A DNA stretch of 64,000 nt, from assembly GCA_016176335.1 (NCBI GenBank), contig JACOXI010000003.1, forward strand, positions 194,477 through 258,476. Direction: 5' to 3'. Below, one piece after another: positions 635 to 56,528 of the stretch. A model generated the notes under the pieces. The model worked only from the letters and a program-made list of their open reading frames with translations, was not told the origin of the DNA and did not search any database. The first letter of the stretch is position 1. Each line of letters starts with the position of its first letter. The translations under genes were made by a program, and so were the position numbers. The DNA comes from Candidatus Daviesbacteria bacterium. Its GTDB lineage: Bacteria; Patescibacteriota; Microgenomatia; Daviesbacterales; UBA10151.

Positions 635-2275
635 ATGGTCAAAAATTTATTATCAATTCTTTACTCGAGACAAACTTCAATCCTTTCCGGTGCTGTAATT
701 ATTATGGCCACCGTGATTTTATCAAAGATATTGGGTTTGGCAAGAGACAGGTTATTAACTCATATTTTTCCACCGGACAATATTTCTATATTTTTTGCAG
801 CTTTCGGCATACCGGATATAATCTTCCAGCTTTTGGTGTTTGGAGCTCTGTCTGTGGCTTTCATTCCTGTTTTTACGGAATATGTGGAAGGAAAAGGTAG
901 AGATGCGGCATTTAAGTTGGCAGGATCAATTCTAAACTTGGCCCTTATTGTTTTAAGTTTTGCAATTATTATCATCCTGATTTTTATTGATCCGCTCACC
1001 TCTTTGGTTGTCCCCGGGTTTTCTGTTGAGCAGCGTATACAGACAATTACCCTAACAAGAGTAATCTTATTGGGACAGTTATTTTTGGTAATAGGATCGC
1101 TCTTTAGTGGTATGTTGCAATCCTTCCAAAGATTTATTATCCCGGCATTAGCAGGAGTTTTTTATAATGTGGGAATTATTTTGGGGATAATTTTTCTTAC
1201 CTCACCTTTGGGCATGATGGGTGCAGCGATTGGGGTTGTGATTGGGGCAGTTTTACATTTTATGATACAGCTTCCGGTTATCGTCTCGTTGGGTTTTAGA
1301 CCGAAGTTTTTATTGACATTTTTTCATCCGGGAGTAAAGGAAATAACCGGGCTTATGAGTGTTAGAAGTGTGGGGTTGGCAGCGGAGCTTTTTAACGAGA
1401 GAGTGGGAATAGCTTTGGCCTCTTTAATATCTGTTCAATCGGTGACCTTTCTGACATTGTCTCAACATTTACAATTGGTACCGATTAGTCTGTTTGGAGC
1501 AACTATTGCTCAAGCAGCTCTTCCTGTGCTTTCTTCCGAGAGGGCAAGGGGCAGGATGGAAGAATTTAAAACCACACTGCTTACAACAATGCATCAGATT
1601 TTATTTCTGGCACTACCTGCAACAGCAATCCTGATAGTGTTGCGGATTCCTGCGGTAAGGCTGGTTTTCGGAGCATCTCAATTTAATTGGGAGGCAACAG
1701 TTTTAACAGGTTTAACTTTAGCTTATTTGTCAATCGGTTTGGCTGCTCAAGCGGTTTCATTACTTTTGGTCAGGGGTTTTTATGCGCTCAAAGATACAAG
1801 AACACCGGTGGTAGTTTCGCTAGTAGTTGTTGCCACAAATGTGGCCTTAAGTCTGTATTTTGTAAAGAGTTTAAGATTGGATGTTTGGAGTTTGGGTTTT
1901 GCATTCTCAATAGCCAGTATTCTATCGGCAGTGCTACTTTTTTCAACACTTCATCTTAAGGTGGGTAAATTTGATTTAAAGGTTGTTTTAATTCCCTTTT
2001 TCAAGATGGTTATGGCAACCATTATTATGGGTGTTGCTTTGTATGTACCTATAAAGCTTTTGGATCAGGTTATTTTTGACACAACAAGAACACTAAACCT
2101 TTTGATATTAACCGGTCTCTCATCAACTTTTGCTCTTTGTGTTTACGTATTATTGGTTTGGTTTTTGAAAGTCAGAGAACTGCAAACTTATTCGGATTTG
2201 TTAAGAAGAGTTGCCAAGTTTCAAAGTCAGTTTAAAGCCAAGGAAATTATCACTCCTGAGAGCGGAACTGTTTAA
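635..2275 (+). CDS. murJ: lipid II flippase MurJ/MviN
   Basis: 546 aa polytopic membrane protein; N-terminus SILSGAVIIMATVILSKILGLARDRLL and overall MurJ/MOP architecture. Confidence 0.85.
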   Translation: MVKNLLSILYSRQTSILSGAVIIMATVILSKILGLARDRLLTHIFPPDNISIFFAAFGIPDIIFQLLVFGALSVAFIPVFTEYVEGKGRDAAFKLAGSILNLALIVLSFAIIIILIFIDPLTSLVVPGFSVEQRIQTITLTRVILLGQLFLVIGSLFSGMLQSFQRFIIPALAGVFYNVGIILGIIFLTSPLGMMGAAIGVVIGAVLHFMIQLPVIVSLGFRPKFLLTFFHPGVKEITGLMSVRSVGLAAELFNERVGIALASLISVQSVTFLTLSQHLQLVPISLFGATIAQAALPVLSSERARGRMEEFKTTLLTTMHQILFLALPATAILIVLRIPAVRLVFGASQFNWEATVLTGLTLAYLSIGLAAQAVSLLLVRGFYALKDTRTPVVVSLVVVATNVALSLYFVKSLRLDVWSLGFAFSIASILSAVLLFSTLHLKVGKFDLKVVLIPFFKMVMATIIMGVALYVPIKLLDQVIFDTTRTLNLLILTGLSSTFALCVYVLLVWFLKVRELQTYSDLLRRVAKFQSQFKAKEIITPESGTV

Positions 2276-5995: not shown

Positions 5996-6045
5996 CGCTT
6001 TGCGTCATCCCGAGGAGCCATTAAGGCGACGAAGGATCTGGTAAT
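5993..6045. repeat. GC-rich structured repeat element (copy C) starting at the TGA stop of the DUF378 gene
   Basis: TGACGCTTTGCGTCATCCCGAGGAGCC...GGCGACGAAGGATCTGG; shares ordered blocks with copies at 55141-55185 and 13441-13473. Confidence 0.45.
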
Positions 6046-12942: not shown

Positions 12943-13539
12943 ATGGGTAAAAAAGCGAACGATCGAATAAATGAAATTATAGGGAAAAATAAAGAGCTCG
13001 AGGCTCAGTTAAAAAGAGCAGTAGCTGATTATCATAATTTGGAAAAAAGAGTATCTGAAGGAAGATCAGAGCTAACTTCTTTTATGGGAGCAGAATTGGT
13101 GAAAAGACTTTTACCAGTATTGGATCATTTAGAACAGGTAGTCGACCGTGGTCGACCTATCCTGAGCGAGCGAAGTGAGTCGAAGGACTGGTTTAGAGGA
13201 GTTGAGCTGGCTGTTAAAGAGTTAAACCAGGTTTTACAATCTGAAGGGTTGGATGAAATATCAGCAGATCCCTCGACTTCGCTCGGGACAGGCTCCGTAT
13301 TTGATCCAAGCCTTCATGAGGCAGTTGACACAAAGGATGGGGAAGATAATAAAATAATAGAAGTAGTCAGAAAAGGTTATAATTTAAATGGAAAAGTTTT
13401 AAGACCAGCACAAGTGATTGTCGGGCGGAAGCAAGACAATCATCCTGAGGAGCGAAACAGCGACGAAGGATCTAGTATGGAAGATTCTGGACAAGCCAGA
13501 ATGACAGAGAACGAAGGATCTGAAGGAAGTACAAACTAA
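12943..13539 (+). CDS. grpE: nucleotide exchange factor GrpE (with C-terminal acidic extension)
   Basis: [10 protein letters not shown]...VELAVKEL...FDPSLHEAV motifs; operon context. Confidence 0.9.
13267..13290. repeat. 24-nt in-frame repeat GATCCCTCGACTTCGCTCGGGACA (second copy in fusA at 50060-50083, 23/24 identical)
   Basis: Direct comparison of the two loci; encodes DPSTSLGT in GrpE and DPSTPLGT in EF-G. Confidence 0.7.
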
Positions 13540-15496: not shown

Positions 15497-15640
15497 CGCT
15501 CCAGTCGGCAACCCCGCTCGCTTGCTCATCAACGCAAGCGTCCTGCGACTAATCGCCTCGGATACGCTCGCTTCGCTCGTCTAGGACTCACTGCGCTCGG
15601 GGGCAGCCTCCTTCCGCTCTCAGTTTCGATAAGTTGATAT
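15497..15640. repeat. GC-rich dnaK-dnaJ intergenic element carrying CTCGCTTCGCTCG and GCGTCCT...GGATACG blocks
   Basis: Unusually GC-rich for this genome; shares an 11-mer TCGCTTCGCTC with 55501-55512 and the ordered heptamers GCGTCCT/GGATACG with 55621-55660. Confidence 0.45.
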
Positions 15641-15649
15641 AATTCGATT

Positions 15650-16588
15650 ATGGCTAAACGTGATTATTATGAAATTTTAGGAGTTAATAAAAGTGCCTCG
15701 GTAGATGAAATTAAATCTGCTTACAGAAAACTGGCCAGAAAACATCATCCTGATGTGGACAAATCTGCTGGTGCTGCGGAAAGGTTTAAGGAAATTGGTG
15801 AAGCGTACCAGGTCCTATCTGATCCGCAAAAAAAAGGAGCTTATGATCAGTTTGGTCATGCTGCATTCGATCGAGGAGCTGGAGCAGGTGGAAATCCCTT
15901 TGGCGGTGGATGGCAGCAATATAGTTGGTCAACAGGTGGTGGTAACCCCTTCGGCTCCGCTCAGGGCGGGCCCAATATCCAATTTGATTTCGGAGGATTT
16001 GAAGATCCGTTTGAGTTATTTGAACAAATTTTTGGTGGTGGGTTTGGTGCTCAAATGAGAAGAAGGCCAACATATCAATTAAATTTAAAATTTGATGAGG
16101 CTATAAAAGGGGTTGAGAAAGAAGTTGAGATAGAATCAAGAAATCAAGCAGGCAGATTAGAGAGAAAAAGGATGAAGATTAAGGTTCCTGCAGGGGTTGA
16201 TAACGGAACCAAAATGAGATTTGGGGATTTGGATATTGTGTTTAATGTAGGAAGAAATCCGCAATTTTTAAGAGAAGGAGCAGATGTATTTTCTGAAATT
16301 ACCATAAATATTCCACAATTGGTTTTAGGAGATGTGTTTGAGGTGGAAACAGTACAAGGGAAAGTTAAGGTAAAAGTCCCTCCAGGCACTCAACCAGGAT
16401 CTTTGGTAAAACTTAAAGGAAAAGGCGCCCCGCGTTTGGGAAGTTCATCTCACGGTGATCATTATGTCAGGGTAAACCTTAATGTGCCACAAAATCCTTC
16501 AAAACAAGAAAAACAACTTTACGAAGAACTAAAAAATTTAGCCTCCCCGCCTGGCGGCGAGGCAAGCAGGAAAAAAGGCTGGTTTTAA
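15650..16588 (+). CDS. dnaJ: DnaJ-family co-chaperone lacking the Cys-rich zinc-finger domain (class B / CbpA-like)
   Basis: J-domain with HPD (KHHPDVD), Gly/Phe-rich region, C-terminal substrate-binding domains; no CxxCxGxG repeats. Confidence 0.85.
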
Positions 16589-53592: not shown

Positions 53593-54777
53593 ATGGCTGA
53601 ACAGAAAAAGTTTGACAGAAGTAAACCCCACGTAAATATTGGTACCATGGGTCATGTTGACCATGGTAAAACCACTCTTACTGCAGCTATTACCAAAGTT
53701 TTAGCTGGCAAAGGTCTGGCTGAAGCTCGCTCTGTTGACCAAATTGACAATGCTCCTGAAGAAAAAGCCCGCGGTATCACCATCAATATCTCCCACCAGG
53801 AATACGAAACCGAAAAAAGACATTATGCTCATATAGACATGCCTGGTCACGCAGACTATATTAAGAACATGATTACCGGCGCCGCACAAACAGATGGCGC
53901 CATTTTAGTTGTTTCCGCGCCTGACGGCCCAATGCCGCAAACCAGAGAACATTTGCTTTTGGCAAGACAAGTAGGAGTTCCAGCAATTGTAGTATTTTTG
54001 AACAAAGTTGATATGGTTGATGATGCGGAACTGCTGGATTTGGTGGAAGAAGAAGTCCGGGATCTTTTGAAAAAATATGAATATGATCCGCAGTCACCTA
54101 TTATTCGCGGTTCTGCTAAAAAAGCTTTGGAAGGTGATGCGGAGGCTGTGAAGGCTGTTGAAGAACTTATGGCCAAGGTGGATGAATGGATTCCAACACC
54201 GGTCAGAGATGTGGAGAAACCATTTTTGATGGCTGTTGAGGATGTTTTCTCCATCAAAGGCAGAGGAACTGTGGTAACCGGAAGAATTGAAAGAGGCAAG
54301 GTTAAAGTTAATGAGGAAATTGAAATTGTGGGGATTAGACCTACCAAAAAGAGTGTGGTGACGGGAATTGAGATGTTTCACAAAATGTTGGATGAAGGAC
54401 AAGCCGGAGATAATGCCGGCATACTGCTTCGAGGTATTGAGAAAGATGATGTGGAAAGAGGTCAGGTTTTGGCCAAACCCTCCTCAATCACTCCTCATGC
54501 CGAATTTGAAGCAGAAGTTTATATTTTATCTAAGGAAGAGGGCGGAAGGCACACGCCTTTCTTCAAAGGTTACAGACCACAATTTTATATCAGGACCACA
54601 GATGTAACAGGTGAGGTACAACTGCCGGAAGGTGTGGAGATGGCCATGCCGGGAGACACGGTTAAAGTTACCGGTAAATTAATTACACCGGTTGCTATGG
54701 AAGATGGTTTAAGGTTTGCTGTCCGCGAAGGTGGTAAAACTGTTGGAGCTGGGGTAATTACGAAAATTATTGCTTAA
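53593..54777 (+). CDS. tuf: translation elongation factor Tu
   Basis: 394 aa; [22 protein letters not shown]; full EF-Tu conservation. Confidence 0.98.
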
Positions 54778-54834
54778 GTTACTTAAGTAACTTAAAATGC
54801 ACATTGAAAGGGAAATCCCTACAGGGATTATAAT

Positions 54835-55143
54835 ATGCCAAGAGGAAGAATCAGAGTAAAACTGAAAAGTTATGATTATCGGGTGTTGGATCACACCTGT
54901 GAGTCCCTTTTGGATACAGCCCTTCGAACCGGTGCCAAGATTGTTGGCCCAATACCTCTCCCTACAAAAATTGAAAGAATTACTGTTTTAAAATCTCCTC
55001 ATACAGATAAAGATTCAAGAGAAGCTTTTGAAATAAAAACCCATAAAAGAATGATTGATATTGTAGAACCTACCCAAAAAACCATAGATTCCCTGATGCA
55101 CCTTGAGATCCCGGCAGGCGTTGACATTGAAGTTAAGATGTGA
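54835..55143 (+). CDS. rpsJ: 30S ribosomal protein S10
   Basis: RIRVKLKSYDYRVLD...VGPIPLPT S10 signature. Confidence 0.95.
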   Translation: MPRGRIRVKLKSYDYRVLDHTCESLLDTALRTGAKIVGPIPLPTKIERITVLKSPHTDKDSREAFEIKTHKRMIDIVEPTQKTIDSLMHLEIPAGVDIEVKM

Positions 55144-55185
55144 CACTCTGTGTCATCCTGAGGGCGAAGCCCGAAGGATCTCTGA
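55141..55185. repeat. GC-rich structured repeat element (copy A) starting at the TGA stop of rpsJ
   Basis: TGACACTCTGTGTCATCCTGAGGGCGAAGCCCGAAGGATCT: a 5-bp hairpin then an extended hairpin AUCCU-GA-GGGC-GAA-GCCC-GA-AGGAU. The first 27 nt match copy C at 20 of 23 aligned positions. Confidence 0.5.
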
Positions 55186-55192
55186 ACTTGTT

Positions 55193-55468
55193 TCAGATAC
55201 CATCTAAAAGATTCTTAAATGCTGGGTTAATGGTTTTTATAAGTGCCATTTTCCTTTTTCTTGTCCAACCCTTTATTTTCTTCTCTGCGTTTATGGCGTC
55301 CATAACTTGGTCAAATTCTTGATAATAAACTAACTTATTTATATTGTATTTACTTGTAAAGTGATATTTCTTTATTCTATGTTCATGTATCCGACGCTCT
55401 AAATTGTTAGTTACTCCCACATAAAGAGTATTGGATTTATTTGTTAGGATATAAACATAATAAGACAT
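55193..55468 (-). CDS. GIY-YIG nuclease family protein (YhbQ/UPF0213-like, 91 aa)
   Basis: YYVYILTNKSNTLYVGVTNNLERRIHEH = GIY-YIG core with conserved Arg/Glu; reverse strand inside the S10 operon. Confidence 0.8.
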   Translation of the reverse strand: MSYYVYILTNKSNTLYVGVTNNLERRIHEHRIKKYHFTSKYNINKLVYYQEFDQVMDAINAEKKIKGWTRKRKMALIKTINPAFKNLLDGI

Positions 55469-55530
55469 GATTAGAAGTATCTCACATTCGTGAGAGATGT
55501 TTCGCTTCGCTCAACATGACAATTGTCAGC

Positions 55531-55559
55531 TTGCATTTAGATTCAGCCTCTGTTAAAAT
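55531..55559 (+). promoter_or_regulatory. candidate promoter for rplC and downstream r-protein genes (TTGCAT-17-TAAAAT), flanked by ACAATTGTCA palindromic repeats
   Basis: Hexamers with 17-nt spacer. TGACAATTGTCA (55517-55528, perfect 12-bp palindrome) and ACAATTGTCA (55595-55604) bracket it. Confidence 0.35.
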
Positions 55560-55674
55560 TTCCTTACTGATGATTTTATTGTCAGGTTGATTTAACAATT
55601 GTCAATTTTCAGTAGATCGTGCGTCCTACTCCGCGTAAAGCTTCGCAGGATACGACGATTGAAAGCGAGATACT

Positions 55675-55729
55675 GAGTGAGAGCCTGAGTGGTTCGAGTA
55701 CCCTCACCATTGAAGGCCTCACTCTTTTT
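55675..55729 (+). terminator. terminator-like/attenuator hairpin immediately upstream of rplC (GAGTGAGAGCC ... GGCCTCACTC + TTTTT)
   Basis: Arms complementary over 10 nt apart from one unpaired A in the left arm, enclosing a 29-nt interior; U-tract ends 13 nt before the rplC ATG. Confidence 0.45.
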
Positions 55730-55742
55730 AATGCTTTAAATT

Positions 55743-56528
55743 ATGATTAACAGTTTATTAGGAATTAAGAAAAATATGACATCAACTTATGACTCTCGGG
55801 GAAGAAGGGTGGGGGCGACTGTGGTGGAGATCCAGCCTAATTTAGTGACTCAAATTAAGGCAACTGACGGAAAAGATGGATATGATGCAGTGCAACTGGG
55901 AATAGGAAGCAAAAAGTCAGTTAAAAAGCCCCAGCTTGGACACGGTAAAAAGGTGGGAATAGAGAAACCGATCCGCTGGTTTAGGGAAATTAGAATTATG
56001 AATCCCAAATCAAGCTTAGAAGATTTACAGCCTGGACAAGATATAAAACTTGACCAGGTTTTTTCAATCGGAGATGCGGTTAAAGTTAGCGGAACTTCCA
56101 AAGGTAAGGGATTTCAAGGTGGTGTCAGAAGGCACGGATTTCATGGTGGGCCAAAGACTCATGGTCAATCTGACAGGCATCGTGCCCCGGGAGCTATTGG
56201 TTCAGGCACCACGCCGGGAAGAGTTTATAAAGGCAAAAGAATGGCAGGACATATGGGTAATACCCAAGCCAGTATTAAGAATTTGGAGATAGTTGGTTTG
56301 GATAAAGAGAAGAATTTATTGATGGTAAAAGGCGGGATACCAGGTCCAACAGGAAGACTTGTAAAGATTACAAAGTTAGGAAGAATCAAAGGTTACACTC
56401 CACCACCGGAGGAAAAGGTGGAGGAGAGTGAAGAGGGTAAAGGGGAAAGCGTTAAGGGTGAAGAAAAGACAGAAAGTCAACCAACTGAAGAAGCACCAAA
56501 AGAAGGAGAAGAAAATGCCAAAAGTTAA
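55743..56528 (+). CDS. rplC: 50S ribosomal protein L3 (with Glu/Lys-rich C-terminal extension)
   Basis: L3 family conservation; acidic/basic C-terminal tail. Confidence 0.95.
   Translation: MINSLLGIKKNMTSTYDSRGRRVGATVVEIQPNLVTQIKATDGKDGYDAVQLGIGSKKSVKKPQLGHGKKVGIEKPIRWFREIRIMNPKSSLEDLQPGQDIKLDQVFSIGDAVKVSGTSKGKGFQGGVRRHGFHGGPKTHGQSDRHRAPGAIGSGTTPGRVYKGKRMAGHMGNTQASIKNLEIVGLDKEKNLLMVKGGIPGPTGRLVKITKLGRIKGYTPPPEEKVEESEEGKGESVKGEEKTESQPTEEAPKEGEENAKS

Follow-up and report, generated by a model that had tools for sequence, protein, structure and literature searches.

A probable SRM-ssn-SRM cassette with an Ssn-family nuclease gene between rpsJ and rplC in a CPR bacterium

Introduction

In most other bacteria sampled, the gap between rpsJ and rplC measures about 0-220 nt. 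In the 64-kb window (the whole stretch of 64,000 nucleotides that was analysed), the gap is 599 nt, and the list of open reading frames places a 91-aa GIY-YIG gene on the minus strand inside it. This locus raises the question of what kind of element the gene belongs to, and whether its arrival changed the way in which rplC is expressed. The genes concerned are the following.

53593-54777: tuf, upstream of rpsJ
54835-55143, plus strand: rpsJ, ribosomal protein S10 (Pfam Ribosomal_S10 PF00338, E 1.3e-36; open reading frame list), the left neighbour
55193-55468, minus strand: ssn, encoding an Ssn-family GIY-YIG nuclease of 91 aa with a single domain (Pfam, BLASTP, residues and AF2)
55743-56528, plus strand: rplC, ribosomal protein L3 (Pfam PF00297), the right neighbour

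An earlier note on this DNA had described a GIY-YIG gene of opposite strand splitting rpsJ from rplC, together with structured flanks, and the description was confirmed by the gap length and by the Pfam match of the product. The non-coding stretch of about 275-277 nt beside ssn folds better than shuffled sequences, with z -4.6 for one strand and -5.1 for the other. The elements named there were also found in the sequence: a TTCG (UUCG) hairpin, the TCGCTTCGCTC block, a terminator-like hairpin and the ACAATTGTCA repeats, which lie at 55517-55528 and 55595-55604 (3 matches, 0.25 expected). The 64-kb window gave no Rfam 15 match at gathering score, and 55100-55800 gave none at E <= 5. ARAGORN found neither tRNA nor tmRNA.

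The Ssn/SRM system consists of a site-specific ssDNA nuclease with cognate hairpin repeats, and is represented by SsnA of Neisseria meningitidis (Chenal et al., Nat Commun 2025, PMC11893778). We are confident that the feature in the window is an SRM-ssn-SRM cassette, that is, an Ssn-family nuclease gene with two inverted cognate GTC-tagged hairpins.

Product of the Nuclease Gene

The product of ssn was matched by Pfam GIY-YIG PF01541 over residues 3-73 (E 1.1e-15, 58 bits, cut-off 22.6). Pfam detected no second domain in the 91 residues, and a separate DNA-binding domain is absent. Ssn proteins have the same single-domain make-up, at roughly 90-150 aa. In a tblastn search of a 7.3-Gb database, the protein matched a 94-aa open reading frame of N. 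gonorrhoeae with 40% identity, 96% query coverage and an E-value of 4e-11. Within 3.3 kb, 16 NTS repeats (GTCATTCCCGCGNNNGCGGGAATC) surround this gonococcal frame. It was taken as the SsnA orthologue by its length and its NTS surroundings, not via CAX49033.1; the length of SsnA is 94 aa (Chenal et al. 2025, PMC11893778). Pairwise BLASTP of the two proteins gave 63.9 bits, an E-value of 4e-20 and 40% identity. With the gonococcal orthologue as reference, the protein reaches the homology threshold that the paper uses for SsnA (E < 1e-10, coverage of at least 75%). We assign the product to the Ssn family (putatively of the cd10448 type), with 40% identity to Neisseria SsnA.

Residues Y6, Y16, G18, R26, H30 and E62 are invariant in 32 CPR homologues and Neisseria SsnA, and the alignments showed that the catalytic tyrosines, the arginine and the metal-binding glutamate are all intact. 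The AF2 model, built from an alignment of ssn homologues that held no Neisseria sequence, has a pLDDT of 92.8 and consists of a compact single GIY-YIG domain with a C-terminal helix. Its top PDB folds are all GIY-YIG domains, namely 1zg2, 1ywl, Slx1 and the N-terminal domain of UvrC. The dN/dS of ssn ranges from 0.04 to 0.17, which indicates strong purifying selection. The idea of a decaying selfish gene was rejected on the intact catalytic residues and this dN/dS. The protein drew 1604 matches, and small GIY-YIG genes are very common in CPR.

Two other identities for the protein have to be weighed. It might be a housekeeping nuclease for repair, passed on vertically and akin to UPF0213/YhbQ or Slx1, with hairpins that are mere terminators or mRNA stabilisers of convergent genes. 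Strong purifying selection and intact catalytic residues would suit such a role, and UPF0213 proteins and Slx1 are the best matches among solved structures (for UPF0213, 28.8 bits and Foldseek E 1.5e-5), in a PDB that holds no Ssn structure. UPF0213 proteins also share its size and fold. However, the UPF0213 structures score at most 28.8 bits to the ssn protein, compared with 63.9 bits for SsnA, and no repeat association is known for them. The YhbQ-like label given before is not the best description of the protein.

The protein might instead be a classical free-standing homing endonuclease, like Seg of phage T4, that cuts dsDNA at the empty junction and is copied in by repair (intronless homing). 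GIY-YIG is indeed a homing-endonuclease fold. However, the 91 residues hold the catalytic domain alone, whereas the homing enzymes of the T4 SegA-G and I-TevI type exceed 200 aa, carry a DNA-binding domain, cut dsDNA and have no flanking hairpins. The NCBIfam group I intron endonuclease model TIGR01453 scored 19.8 bits, below its cut-off of 56.05. In the nearest relative that has been characterised, cleavage is confined to ssDNA, beside a hairpin. Homing endonuclease is therefore not the best name for this single-domain Ssn-family protein, which has no DNA-binding domain.

Hairpin Repeats at Both Ends of the Gene

Two hairpins stand at either end of the cassette, and folding as ssDNA reproduced them at both ends.

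55152-55180, plus strand: hairpin 1 (SRM-like) on the 3' side of ssn, GTCATCCTGAGGGCGAAGCCCGAAGGATC, the "repeat copy A" of the earlier note (R1, fold and covariation)
55181-55197, plus strand: second small hairpin at the 3' end, TCTGAA-CTTGT-TTCAGA (ssDNA fold; also in homologue loci)
55480-55495, minus strand: second small hairpin at the 5' end, with a TTCG loop, TCTCACATTCGTGAGA (ssDNA fold)
55496-55520, minus strand: hairpin 1 (SRM-like) on the 5' side of ssn (R1 covariance model and compensatory changes)

The 3'-side hairpin 1 has the layout GTC-ATCCT-GA-GGGC-GAA-GCCC-GA-AGGAT-C. The 5'-side hairpin 1 reads GTC-ATGTT-GA-GC-GAA-GC-GA-AACAT-C on the minus strand, from GTCAT at 55520 down to ATC at 55496, and the TCGCTTCGCTC block at 55502-55512 lies inside it. 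Between the two ends, the stem changed in a compensatory way, with ATGT/ACAT at the 5' end and ATCC/GGAT at the 3' end. The covariance model R1 matched 55148-55186 with 41.9 bits (E 1.7e-8) and 55490-55524 with 46.2 bits (E 1.4e-9), both copies being members of its training set. A repeat had previously been noticed at one side of the gene only; this copy stands, and the inverted second copy at 55496-55520 places the repeat on both sides. The second small hairpin of the 3' end overlaps the stop codon of ssn (55193-55195). That of the 5' end reads TCTCAC-GAAT-GTGAGA on the gene strand and lies 12 nt upstream of the ssn ATG.

The association between gene and repeat was then counted in 73 non-redundant homologue loci. 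In 66 of them, the coding strand has GTCAT no more than 160 nt ahead of the gene (19 in the opposite-orientation control), and 47 have ATGAC downstream (28 in the control). The tag stood on both sides of the gene in 45 of the 73 loci. All 54 aligned repeat copies share GTCAT, both GA dinucleotides and the final ATC. The stem pair 10-32 is UA in 27 copies, CG in 22 and GC in 5, and the covariation score of the stem was reached by none of 500 shuffles. Among 53 testable flanks, 37 have the second small hairpin immediately after the repeat, compared with 1.6 in shuffles, and its stems covary.

By mutagenesis, the Ssn paper assigned cleavage specificity to the three nucleotides ahead of the palindrome and binding to the C that follows it (PMC11893778). 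The published SRM pattern, HGTCWYN(0-2)YYVSBRHN(0-5)WNVSBRGN(0-2)RNCYNB, matched none of 79 CPR flanking motifs and no site in the window. It does match the NTS consensus, and is a search tool, not a definition. The CPR motifs lie outside this pattern, so the CPR hairpin repeat can be classed as a variant of SRM. The copies vary by loop indels, and a generic search for repeats in the window therefore missed the family. A loose pattern (GTC, a 5-bp stem and C, with G-T pairs allowed) gave 31 matches and 32 in shuffles, and was replaced by the covariance model. A literature search on the repeat sequence returned unrelated primer matches only.

These data bear on the housekeeping reading. Hairpins do lie between the convergent rpsJ and nuclease gene, as that reading would have it. 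However, the 5' hairpin pair lies upstream of ssn, a senseless place for a terminator. All 54 copies keep the GTC tag and the closing C, in a fixed orientation, and a terminator needs neither. The hairpins are followed by no T-run, and the protein is far nearer to SsnA than to UPF0213. We regard a housekeeping nuclease with incidental terminators as highly improbable. The homing reading likewise offers no role for conserved hairpin ends.

Three solo copies of the repeat were detected elsewhere in the 64 kb, with modest scores of 18-21 bits; 367 kb of control loci gave one comparable non-Neisseria match.

6000-6044, plus strand: solo hairpin repeat, intergenic, GTCATCCCGAGGAGCCATTAAGGCGACGAAGGATC (R1 19.8 bits, E 0.008)
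13440-13478, plus strand: solo copy in the C-terminal tail of grpE (R1 18.4 bits, E 0.017)
13477-13509, minus strand: solo copy in the same tail, convergent with the former (R1 20.5 bits, E 0.005)

The grpE reading frame with the two copies extends over 12943-13539.

Boundaries and Occupancy of the Site

The window, L096 (same cassette) and L018 (empty site) were aligned to determine the limits of the cassette.

55152-55520, minus strand: SRM-ssn-SRM cassette, 369 bp, limited by the two GTCAT tags (three-way alignment; R1 at both ends)

The stop codon of rpsJ lies 8 nt ahead of the cassette. By eye, the alignment showed no target-site duplication at the cassette ends. The rpsJ|rplC site carries the cassette in the window and in L095, L096, L097, L009, L177 and L178-180. 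The cassette is absent from L015-L018; among these, L018 is an empty site with a spacer of about 190 nt, and the others hold unrelated genes. The empty site that the earlier note had thought of looking for among relatives does exist. Occupancy is polymorphic among lineages with 88-91% identity in concatenated TUF, S10 and L3, and the L3 of the window is 67-77% identical to that of relatives. The absence of ssn from the site in 4 of about 11 close relatives is a further point against a vertical housekeeping nuclease. Homing would produce such a pattern, in which at least seven lineages have the cassette at one intergenic site between highly conserved genes and four have either nothing or something else there. 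However, close copies are found at unrelated sites too, and of all the readings we give homing the least credence.

The other contexts of close homologues are recR|ybaB, a position after rpsG, and one next to an oxidoreductase gene. The recR|ybaB copy (L001/L002) is 84-85% identical to the rpsJ-site copies and nested among them, and L110 has two copies on a single 9-kb contig. In the closest homologues, the gene is antisense to its neighbours; the orientation rule drawn from this was rejected, as the 73 loci favour the co-directional arrangement (32 versus 10). Gain and loss at rpsJ|rplC are indistinguishable because the rpsJ-rplC spacers of cassette-free relatives contain no hairpin scar.

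The cassette might be an active autonomous ssDNA transposon that inserted repeatedly after rpsJ and seeded solo hairpins. It would use the Ssn nuclease as its transposase and be the GIY-YIG equivalent of IS200/IS605 or RAYT REPtrons. This hypothesis was voiced by the Ssn paper itself (PMC11893778). The layout is IS-like, its inverted ends coinciding exactly with the limits of the unit, and the presence/absence among close relatives, the clean empty site of L018, the nested recR|ybaB copy, the contexts after rpsG and beside the oxidoreductase gene, and the pair of copies in L110 all speak for it. So do the solo hairpins, some of which lie within coding sequence. On the other side, the window contains one copy only, with no second ssn in its 64 kb. 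Synonymous sites are saturated among same-site copies and both earliest-branching lineages (L009 and L177) have the cassette, which fits long vertical residence. Purifying selection on ssn is strong, there is no target-site duplication, and no strain-level polymorphism was seen, the sole contig with the exact S10 protein (L176, 100% identical) being the same genome. A strand-transfer activity is not known for GIY-YIG enzymes, and the stems differ between the two ends. We consider the transposon unlikely, although it is a more serious alternative than homing or housekeeping. Equally doubtful is its fuller form, in which the unit targets the rpsJ spacer and tight operon junctions and seeds hairpins even in-frame, as in grpE. 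Most simply, the SRM-ssn-SRM cassette would be a long-standing resident of this site in the clade, which some lineages lost or replaced and which moved to another site at least once.

Comparison with Known Systems and Proposed Function

The likeness to the Ssn/SRM system is extensive. The protein is a single GIY-YIG domain of about 90-94 aa with 40% identity over its full length, and inverted GTC-palindrome-C hairpins bracket the gene as in the NTS-ssnA-NTS layout. The GTC and the closing C are invariant in the CPR repeat, matching the mutagenesis of the paper, and solo repeat copies exist elsewhere in the genome. There are also differences. The host belongs to CPR/Patescibacteria, which appear nowhere in the text of the paper; its association analysis covered RefSeq reference genomes (PMC11893778). 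The internal loop of the CPR repeat is GA/GA and its inner hairpin varies. A second hairpin, of which the paper gives no description, adjoins the repeat, and none of the 79 CPR motifs fits the published degenerate pattern. Solo copies are few here (64-kb window) but number hundreds in Neisseria. The CPR subfamily is known here from sequence, whereas the Ssn enzymes of Neisseria have been characterised biochemically.

CGTC-tagged palindromic repeats, including the RPEs of Rickettsia, were reported without a dedicated transposase (Di Nocera et al. 2013, PMC3733652). They too are short hairpins with (C)GTC at one end, some of them inside genes, but the CPR copies keep GTC rather than CGTC and are associated with one particular nuclease gene. 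REPtrons (REP/REPIN with RAYT) resemble the cassette in placing the gene of a hairpin-recognising ssDNA enzyme between inverted hairpins that are also dispersed, solo or paired. They differ in that their enzyme is an HUH/Y1 transposase of the IS200/IS605 kind and their tag is GTAG; here there is a GIY-YIG nuclease, for which no joining activity is known, and a GTC tag. Homing endonucleases share the GIY-YIG fold and the patchy presence between conserved genes.

By analogy with Neisseria SsnA, the Ssn protein would bind the hairpin solely as ssDNA, on the strand that carries GTC-palindrome-C. Cleavage would be ssDNA-specific and would fall a few nt 5' of the GTC tag, here GTCAT, and dsDNA and RNA would be spared. 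The most likely role, also by this comparison, would be the control of incoming or exposed repeat-bearing ssDNA (cf. Neisseria transformation) and/or the spread of the repeat.

The finding extends the Ssn/SRM system, described in 2025, to CPR (Patescibacteria), where the published SRM search pattern misses the loci entirely. The two-hairpin CPR variant with its strong covariation offers ready new enzyme/hairpin pairs for the ssDNA tools proposed by the Ssn authors. The series of filled, empty and otherwise occupied sites at rpsJ|rplC is material on the mobility of SRM-ssn-SRM units that is testable in metagenomic populations. If the transposon reading were true, the unit would stand beside IS200/IS605 and REPtrons as a prokaryotic mobile element with a new mechanism, in a class of its own.

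Promoter and Leader of rplC

The elements that precede rplC lie outside the cassette.

55531-55559, plus strand: conserved rplC promoter, with a -35 TTGCAT (55531-55536), a 17-nt spacer and an extended -10 TGtTAAAAT (55551-55559)
55606-55742, plus strand: rplC leader, with P1 (55615-55660), the terminator-like P2 (55675-55724) and T5 (55725-55729)

The candidate promoter put forward earlier at 55531-55559 proved to be a good, conserved extended -10 promoter. It is kept in the window, L096, L016, L017, L018 (the empty site) and L009. A promoter consensus scan listed only a weaker overlapping candidate at 55516-55543 (ATGACA-16-TAGATT, 9/12) and did not list the TTGCAT/TAAAAT hexamers. A simple scan of 54700-55900 found no canonical intrinsic terminator; the leader hairpin was missed because it is too long and branched. 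The E. coli S10-operon leader (L4-mediated attenuation) resembles this leader, and the leader alone, in being close to the promoter and in placing a hairpin and then a terminator hairpin with a U-run before rplC-rplD. It differs in showing no sequence or Rfam similarity and in its position upstream of rpsJ, the present leader lying between rpsJ and rplC.

The TTGCAT-17-TGnTAAAAT promoter and the two-hairpin leader stand upstream of rplC in every relative, cassette-free and empty-site ones included. Since both are conserved in cassette-free relatives, the cassette did not force their acquisition, and they are independent of its arrival. The insertion thus did not rewire the ribosomal operon by imposing a new promoter and leader on rplC, as had been supposed. 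Likewise, the region of 275 nt had been read as a flank of the insertion: this is right for the hairpin pair at its 5' end, and the remainder, kept in cassette-free relatives, is the rplC promoter and leader and lies outside the insertion. The cassette would occupy a former spacer of about 13 nt, from the rpsJ stop codon to the -35 box of the pre-existing rplC promoter; placed ahead of that box, it would thus be transcriptionally harmless.

As a side result, a conserved, covarying and unannotated leader upstream of rplC was exposed in the clade. In its alignment, 92.6% of the cells are paired and 11 of the 27 pairs show a compensatory change. Each of the 12 clade members gave a match to the leader model R2 ahead of rplC, and 4 of the 12 had played no part in building the model.

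Organization of the rpsJ-rplC region

The gap between rpsJ and rplC holds ssn, a minus-strand GIY-YIG gene, followed by the promoter and leader of rplC. All the small features that an earlier note had read from the sequence were found in place. Judged by its genes and by the names of their homologues, the window belongs to a CPR/Microgenomates lineage near Candidatus Daviesbacteria.

Features of the region and solo repeat copies in the window
53593-54777, tuf
54835-55143, rpsJ (Pfam Ribosomal_S10)
55193-55468, minus strand, ssn, 91-aa ORF (Pfam GIY-YIG, E 1.1e-15)
55531-55536, plus strand, -35 box TTGCAT of the rplC promoter, then a 17-nt spacer
55551-55559, plus strand, extended -10 TGtTAAAAT of the same promoter
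55615-55660, plus strand, P1 hairpin of the rplC leader
55675-55724, plus strand, terminator-like P2 of the leader, then T5
55743-56528, rplC (Pfam Ribosomal_L3)
6000-6044, intergenic, solo repeat copy (R1 match)
13440-13509, inside the grpE tail, convergent pair of solo copies (R1 matches)

On both strands, the fold of the non-coding stretch between rpsJ and rplC was significantly more stable than in shuffles, and Rfam and ARAGORN gave no match. The window aligned cleanly with L096, a relative carrying the same gene, and L018, a relative with an empty site. In L018, 13 nt after the rpsJ stop are followed by TTGCTT-N17-TGTTAAAAT and the leader. The window and L096 have a 369-bp block interposed (window 55152-55520), bounded exactly by GTCAT at one end and ATGAC at the other. 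All three align again from the -35 box onward, which places 55531-55742 outside the insertion. The cassette is a discrete unit positioned between stop codon and promoter.

The gene is bracketed by two inverted copies of one composite repeat, not by a repeat on one side only as the earlier note had it.

Hairpins of the cassette ends
Upstream hairpin 1, gene strand: GTCAT-GTT-GA-GC-GAA-GC-GA-AAC-ATC
Upstream hairpin 2, gene strand, directly after hairpin 1: TCTCAC-GAAT-GTGAGA
Downstream hairpin 1, present on the gene strand as the reverse complement of: GTCAT-CCT-GA-GGGC-GAA-GCCC-GA-AGG-ATC
Downstream hairpin 2, directly after hairpin 1 in the same reading and overlapping the ssn stop codon: TCTGAA-CTTGT-TTCAGA

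Upstream hairpin 2 lies 12 nt from the ORF and is the structure previously noted as a UUCG hairpin; the TCGCTTCGCTC block forms the loop of that repeat copy. Single-strand DNA folding reproduced the two hairpins per end, and the stems of the two ends differ in a compensatory manner (ATGT/ACAT vs ATCC/GGAT).

Conservation of the repeat

Among 73 non-redundant homologue loci (53-84% identity), GTCAT lay upstream on the coding strand, at most 160 nt away, in 66 (opposite-orientation control, 19), and ATGAC occurred downstream in 47 (control, 28). Fifty-four short copies aligned as GTCAT-YYY-GAG-(variable inner hairpin)-CGAAG-RRR-ATCTCT, with no variation in GTCAT, in either GA dinucleotide or in the closing ATC. 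The stem covaried strongly (pair 10-32: UA 27, CG 22, GC 5), with a score of 0.42 vs 0.16 in shuffles (0/500), and slid controls scored far lower. In 37 of 53 testable copies, vs 1.6 in shuffles, the repeat was immediately followed by another perfect hairpin (at least 5 bp), whose stems covaried too (CAC/GTG, CGC/GCG, GGC/GCC). Within the window, R1, the covariance model of this GTC-tagged hairpin, detected three solo copies; control loci totalling 367 kb yielded only two weak matches, one of them a true Neisseria repeat (NTS).

The copies in the grpE ORF (12943-13539) are translated in frame within its C-terminal tail, and weaker ones lie at 13162-13175 and 13269-13288. They are reminiscent of Rickettsia palindromic elements, which occur inside genes. 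The GC-rich, repeat-like dnaK-dnaJ spacer (15497-15650) also holds the TCGCTTCGCTC block (15568-15578); its R1 match is partial and weak (9.3 bits). Several copies in both orientations cluster beside ssn genes in two relatives (L009 3272-3380; L097 414-878), resembling the NTS clusters of Neisseria and the BIME-like arrays of REPs.

Relationship to Ssn nucleases

Neisseria meningitidis SsnA is a 94-aa single-domain GIY-YIG protein (cd10448) whose binding to the NTS hairpin CGTCATTCCCGCG-MAV-GCGGGAATCYRG is restricted to single-stranded DNA and to that strand; it cleaves a few nucleotides upstream of the hairpin (Chenal et al. 2025, PMC11893778). Cleavage is governed by the three bases preceding the palindrome and binding by the C following it, and such repeats flank ssnA homologues of several phyla in an NTS-ssnA-NTS layout (PMC11893778). 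A tblastn search of a plasmid collection with the window protein matched two gonococcal chromosomes, at a 94-aa ORF amid 16 NTS copies in 3.3 kb. BLASTP aligned 89 residues of this ORF with the window protein at 40% identity (63.9 bits, E 4e-20); against 1ywl and 1zg2, which are UPF0213 structures, the score was far lower, 28.8 bits. The earlier assignment of the protein as YhbQ-like was not supported, as it is much closer in sequence to the gonococcal SsnA-type ORF than to UPF0213. The catalytic residues (Tyr, Tyr, Arg, His and Glu) do not vary, the AlphaFold model has the GIY-YIG fold (pLDDT 92.8), and the invariant positions of the CPR (Patescibacteria) repeat include exactly GTC and the closing C. 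Based on these data, we assign the gene by sequence to the Ssn family and its flanking hairpins as the cognate repeats. The cassette adds a CPR member to the Ssn/SRM system, one whose repeat is a two-hairpin variant.

The degenerate SRM pattern of PMC11893778 matched 0 of 79 CPR flanks, as it does not accommodate the internal GA/GA loop and the inner hairpin of the CPR repeat. It was derived for searching, from 29 genomes of four phyla; the repeat-association analysis was based on RefSeq reference genomes, and Patescibacteria are never named in the text (PMC11893778). The mismatch thus marks a variant repeat and is not counter-evidence to homology.

Occupancy and history of the site

We compared rpsJ regions of relatives and contigs encoding close GIY-YIG homologues; the site was compared among genomes with EF-Tu 90-96% identical to that of the window. 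The gene lies in the gap, always antisense, in the window, L095, L096, L097, L009, L177 and L178-180. In L015 the gap is occupied by a matrixin-like peptidase gene, in L016 and L017 by unknown ORFs, and in L018 it is an empty spacer of ~190 nt. The earlier interpretation was right in part: this is a polymorphic, repeat-flanked GIY-YIG unit, at a site that is filled, empty or otherwise occupied.

In this clade the spacer is a hot spot for insertions. Unrelated genes in sister lineages (the matrixin-like peptidase, a DUF3276 protein and several ORFs without Pfam match) adjoin the cassette in some cases and take its place in others.

Unrelated genes in the spacer
L015 3378-4229
L016 3591-3905
L017 3355-3897, minus strand
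L095 205-660, minus strand
L009 2480-2713, minus strand
L177 2159-2389

An ORF beside the L097 cassette (882-1232, minus strand) joins an unrelated N-terminus to the C-terminal half of S10 alone (residues 55-102, 77% identity); this gene may be rpsJ after rearrangement or mis-assembly. Over its 1634 nt, the public contig L176 (Logan SRR4343435_102084) matches window 54267-55900 at 100% identity, so that sequencing run contains the window's genome; the nuclease gene call on the contig is a truncated 75-aa product that begins at an internal Met.

In a rough neighbour-joining tree of EF-Tu+S10+L3, cassette-bearing and cassette-free lineages were interleaved in a shallow clade (88-91% identity), and the earliest two branches (L009 and L177) both bear the cassette. 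The ssn copies at the site are 75-84% identical, with saturated synonymous sites and dN/dS of 0.04-0.17. Cassette-free spacers held no hairpin scar; neither a target-site duplication nor polymorphism within the population was found. Most simply, the cassette has long resided here under selection, and some lineages have lost or replaced it; a possible alternative is that it was gained repeatedly at this site. At least one relocation is likely, because the recR-ybaB copy (L001/L002) is 84-85% identical to the rpsJ-site copies and nested among them. Other homologues lie after rpsG or beside unrelated genes, and a 9.2-kb contig (L110, Ga0209429_10003348) carries two paralogues.

Possible function

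The gene is intact and of Ssn type, and the hairpins, those bounding the cassette as well as those located elsewhere in the genome, are oriented and covarying. By analogy with the Neisseria enzyme, the protein would recognise the GTC-tagged hairpin on a strand made single by DNA uptake, replication or transcription, and would nick immediately 5' of the tag. The nicks at the cassette would then fall just outside both ends, on opposite strands. As in Neisseria transformation, the system may restrict or modulate recombination of repeat-bearing single-stranded DNA; it may also propagate the repeats. A classical homing endonuclease is unlikely because the protein has no DNA-binding domain and the closest relative to have been characterised is specific for ssDNA. 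Nor is a plain housekeeping nuclease gene with terminator hairpins likely, because its presence is patchy, the tag is invariant and oriented, a hairpin pair sits upstream of the gene, and T-runs are absent.

Promoter and leader of rplC

The promoter candidate proposed earlier is real as a conserved motif. The covariance model of the leader (R2) matched directly upstream of rplC in every clade member, including four loci left out of model building (75-97 bits), with no further match in the window and none in more distant CPR rpsJ loci. In the alignment, which was fitted to the model, 92.6% of cells were paired and 11 of 27 pairs showed compensatory change. The leader had no Rfam match. We consider promoter and leader a candidate new ribosomal-protein leader/attenuator in this Daviesbacteria clade. 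The idea that the nuclease gene made rplC acquire them is not supported: both are present in cassette-free relatives, including the empty-site genome, so the promoter is independent of the cassette. They also occur at L018 3320-3500, L177 1843-1952 (minus strand) and L178 2253-2358 (minus strand).

ACAATTGTCA palindromes lie at 55517-55528 and within 55578-55605 (minus strand); the downstream one is kept in L018, not in L096. Their minus strand includes TTGACA, and a scan found a promoter-like site, TTGACA-16-GACAAT (10/12), inside the rplC leader and directed towards ssn.
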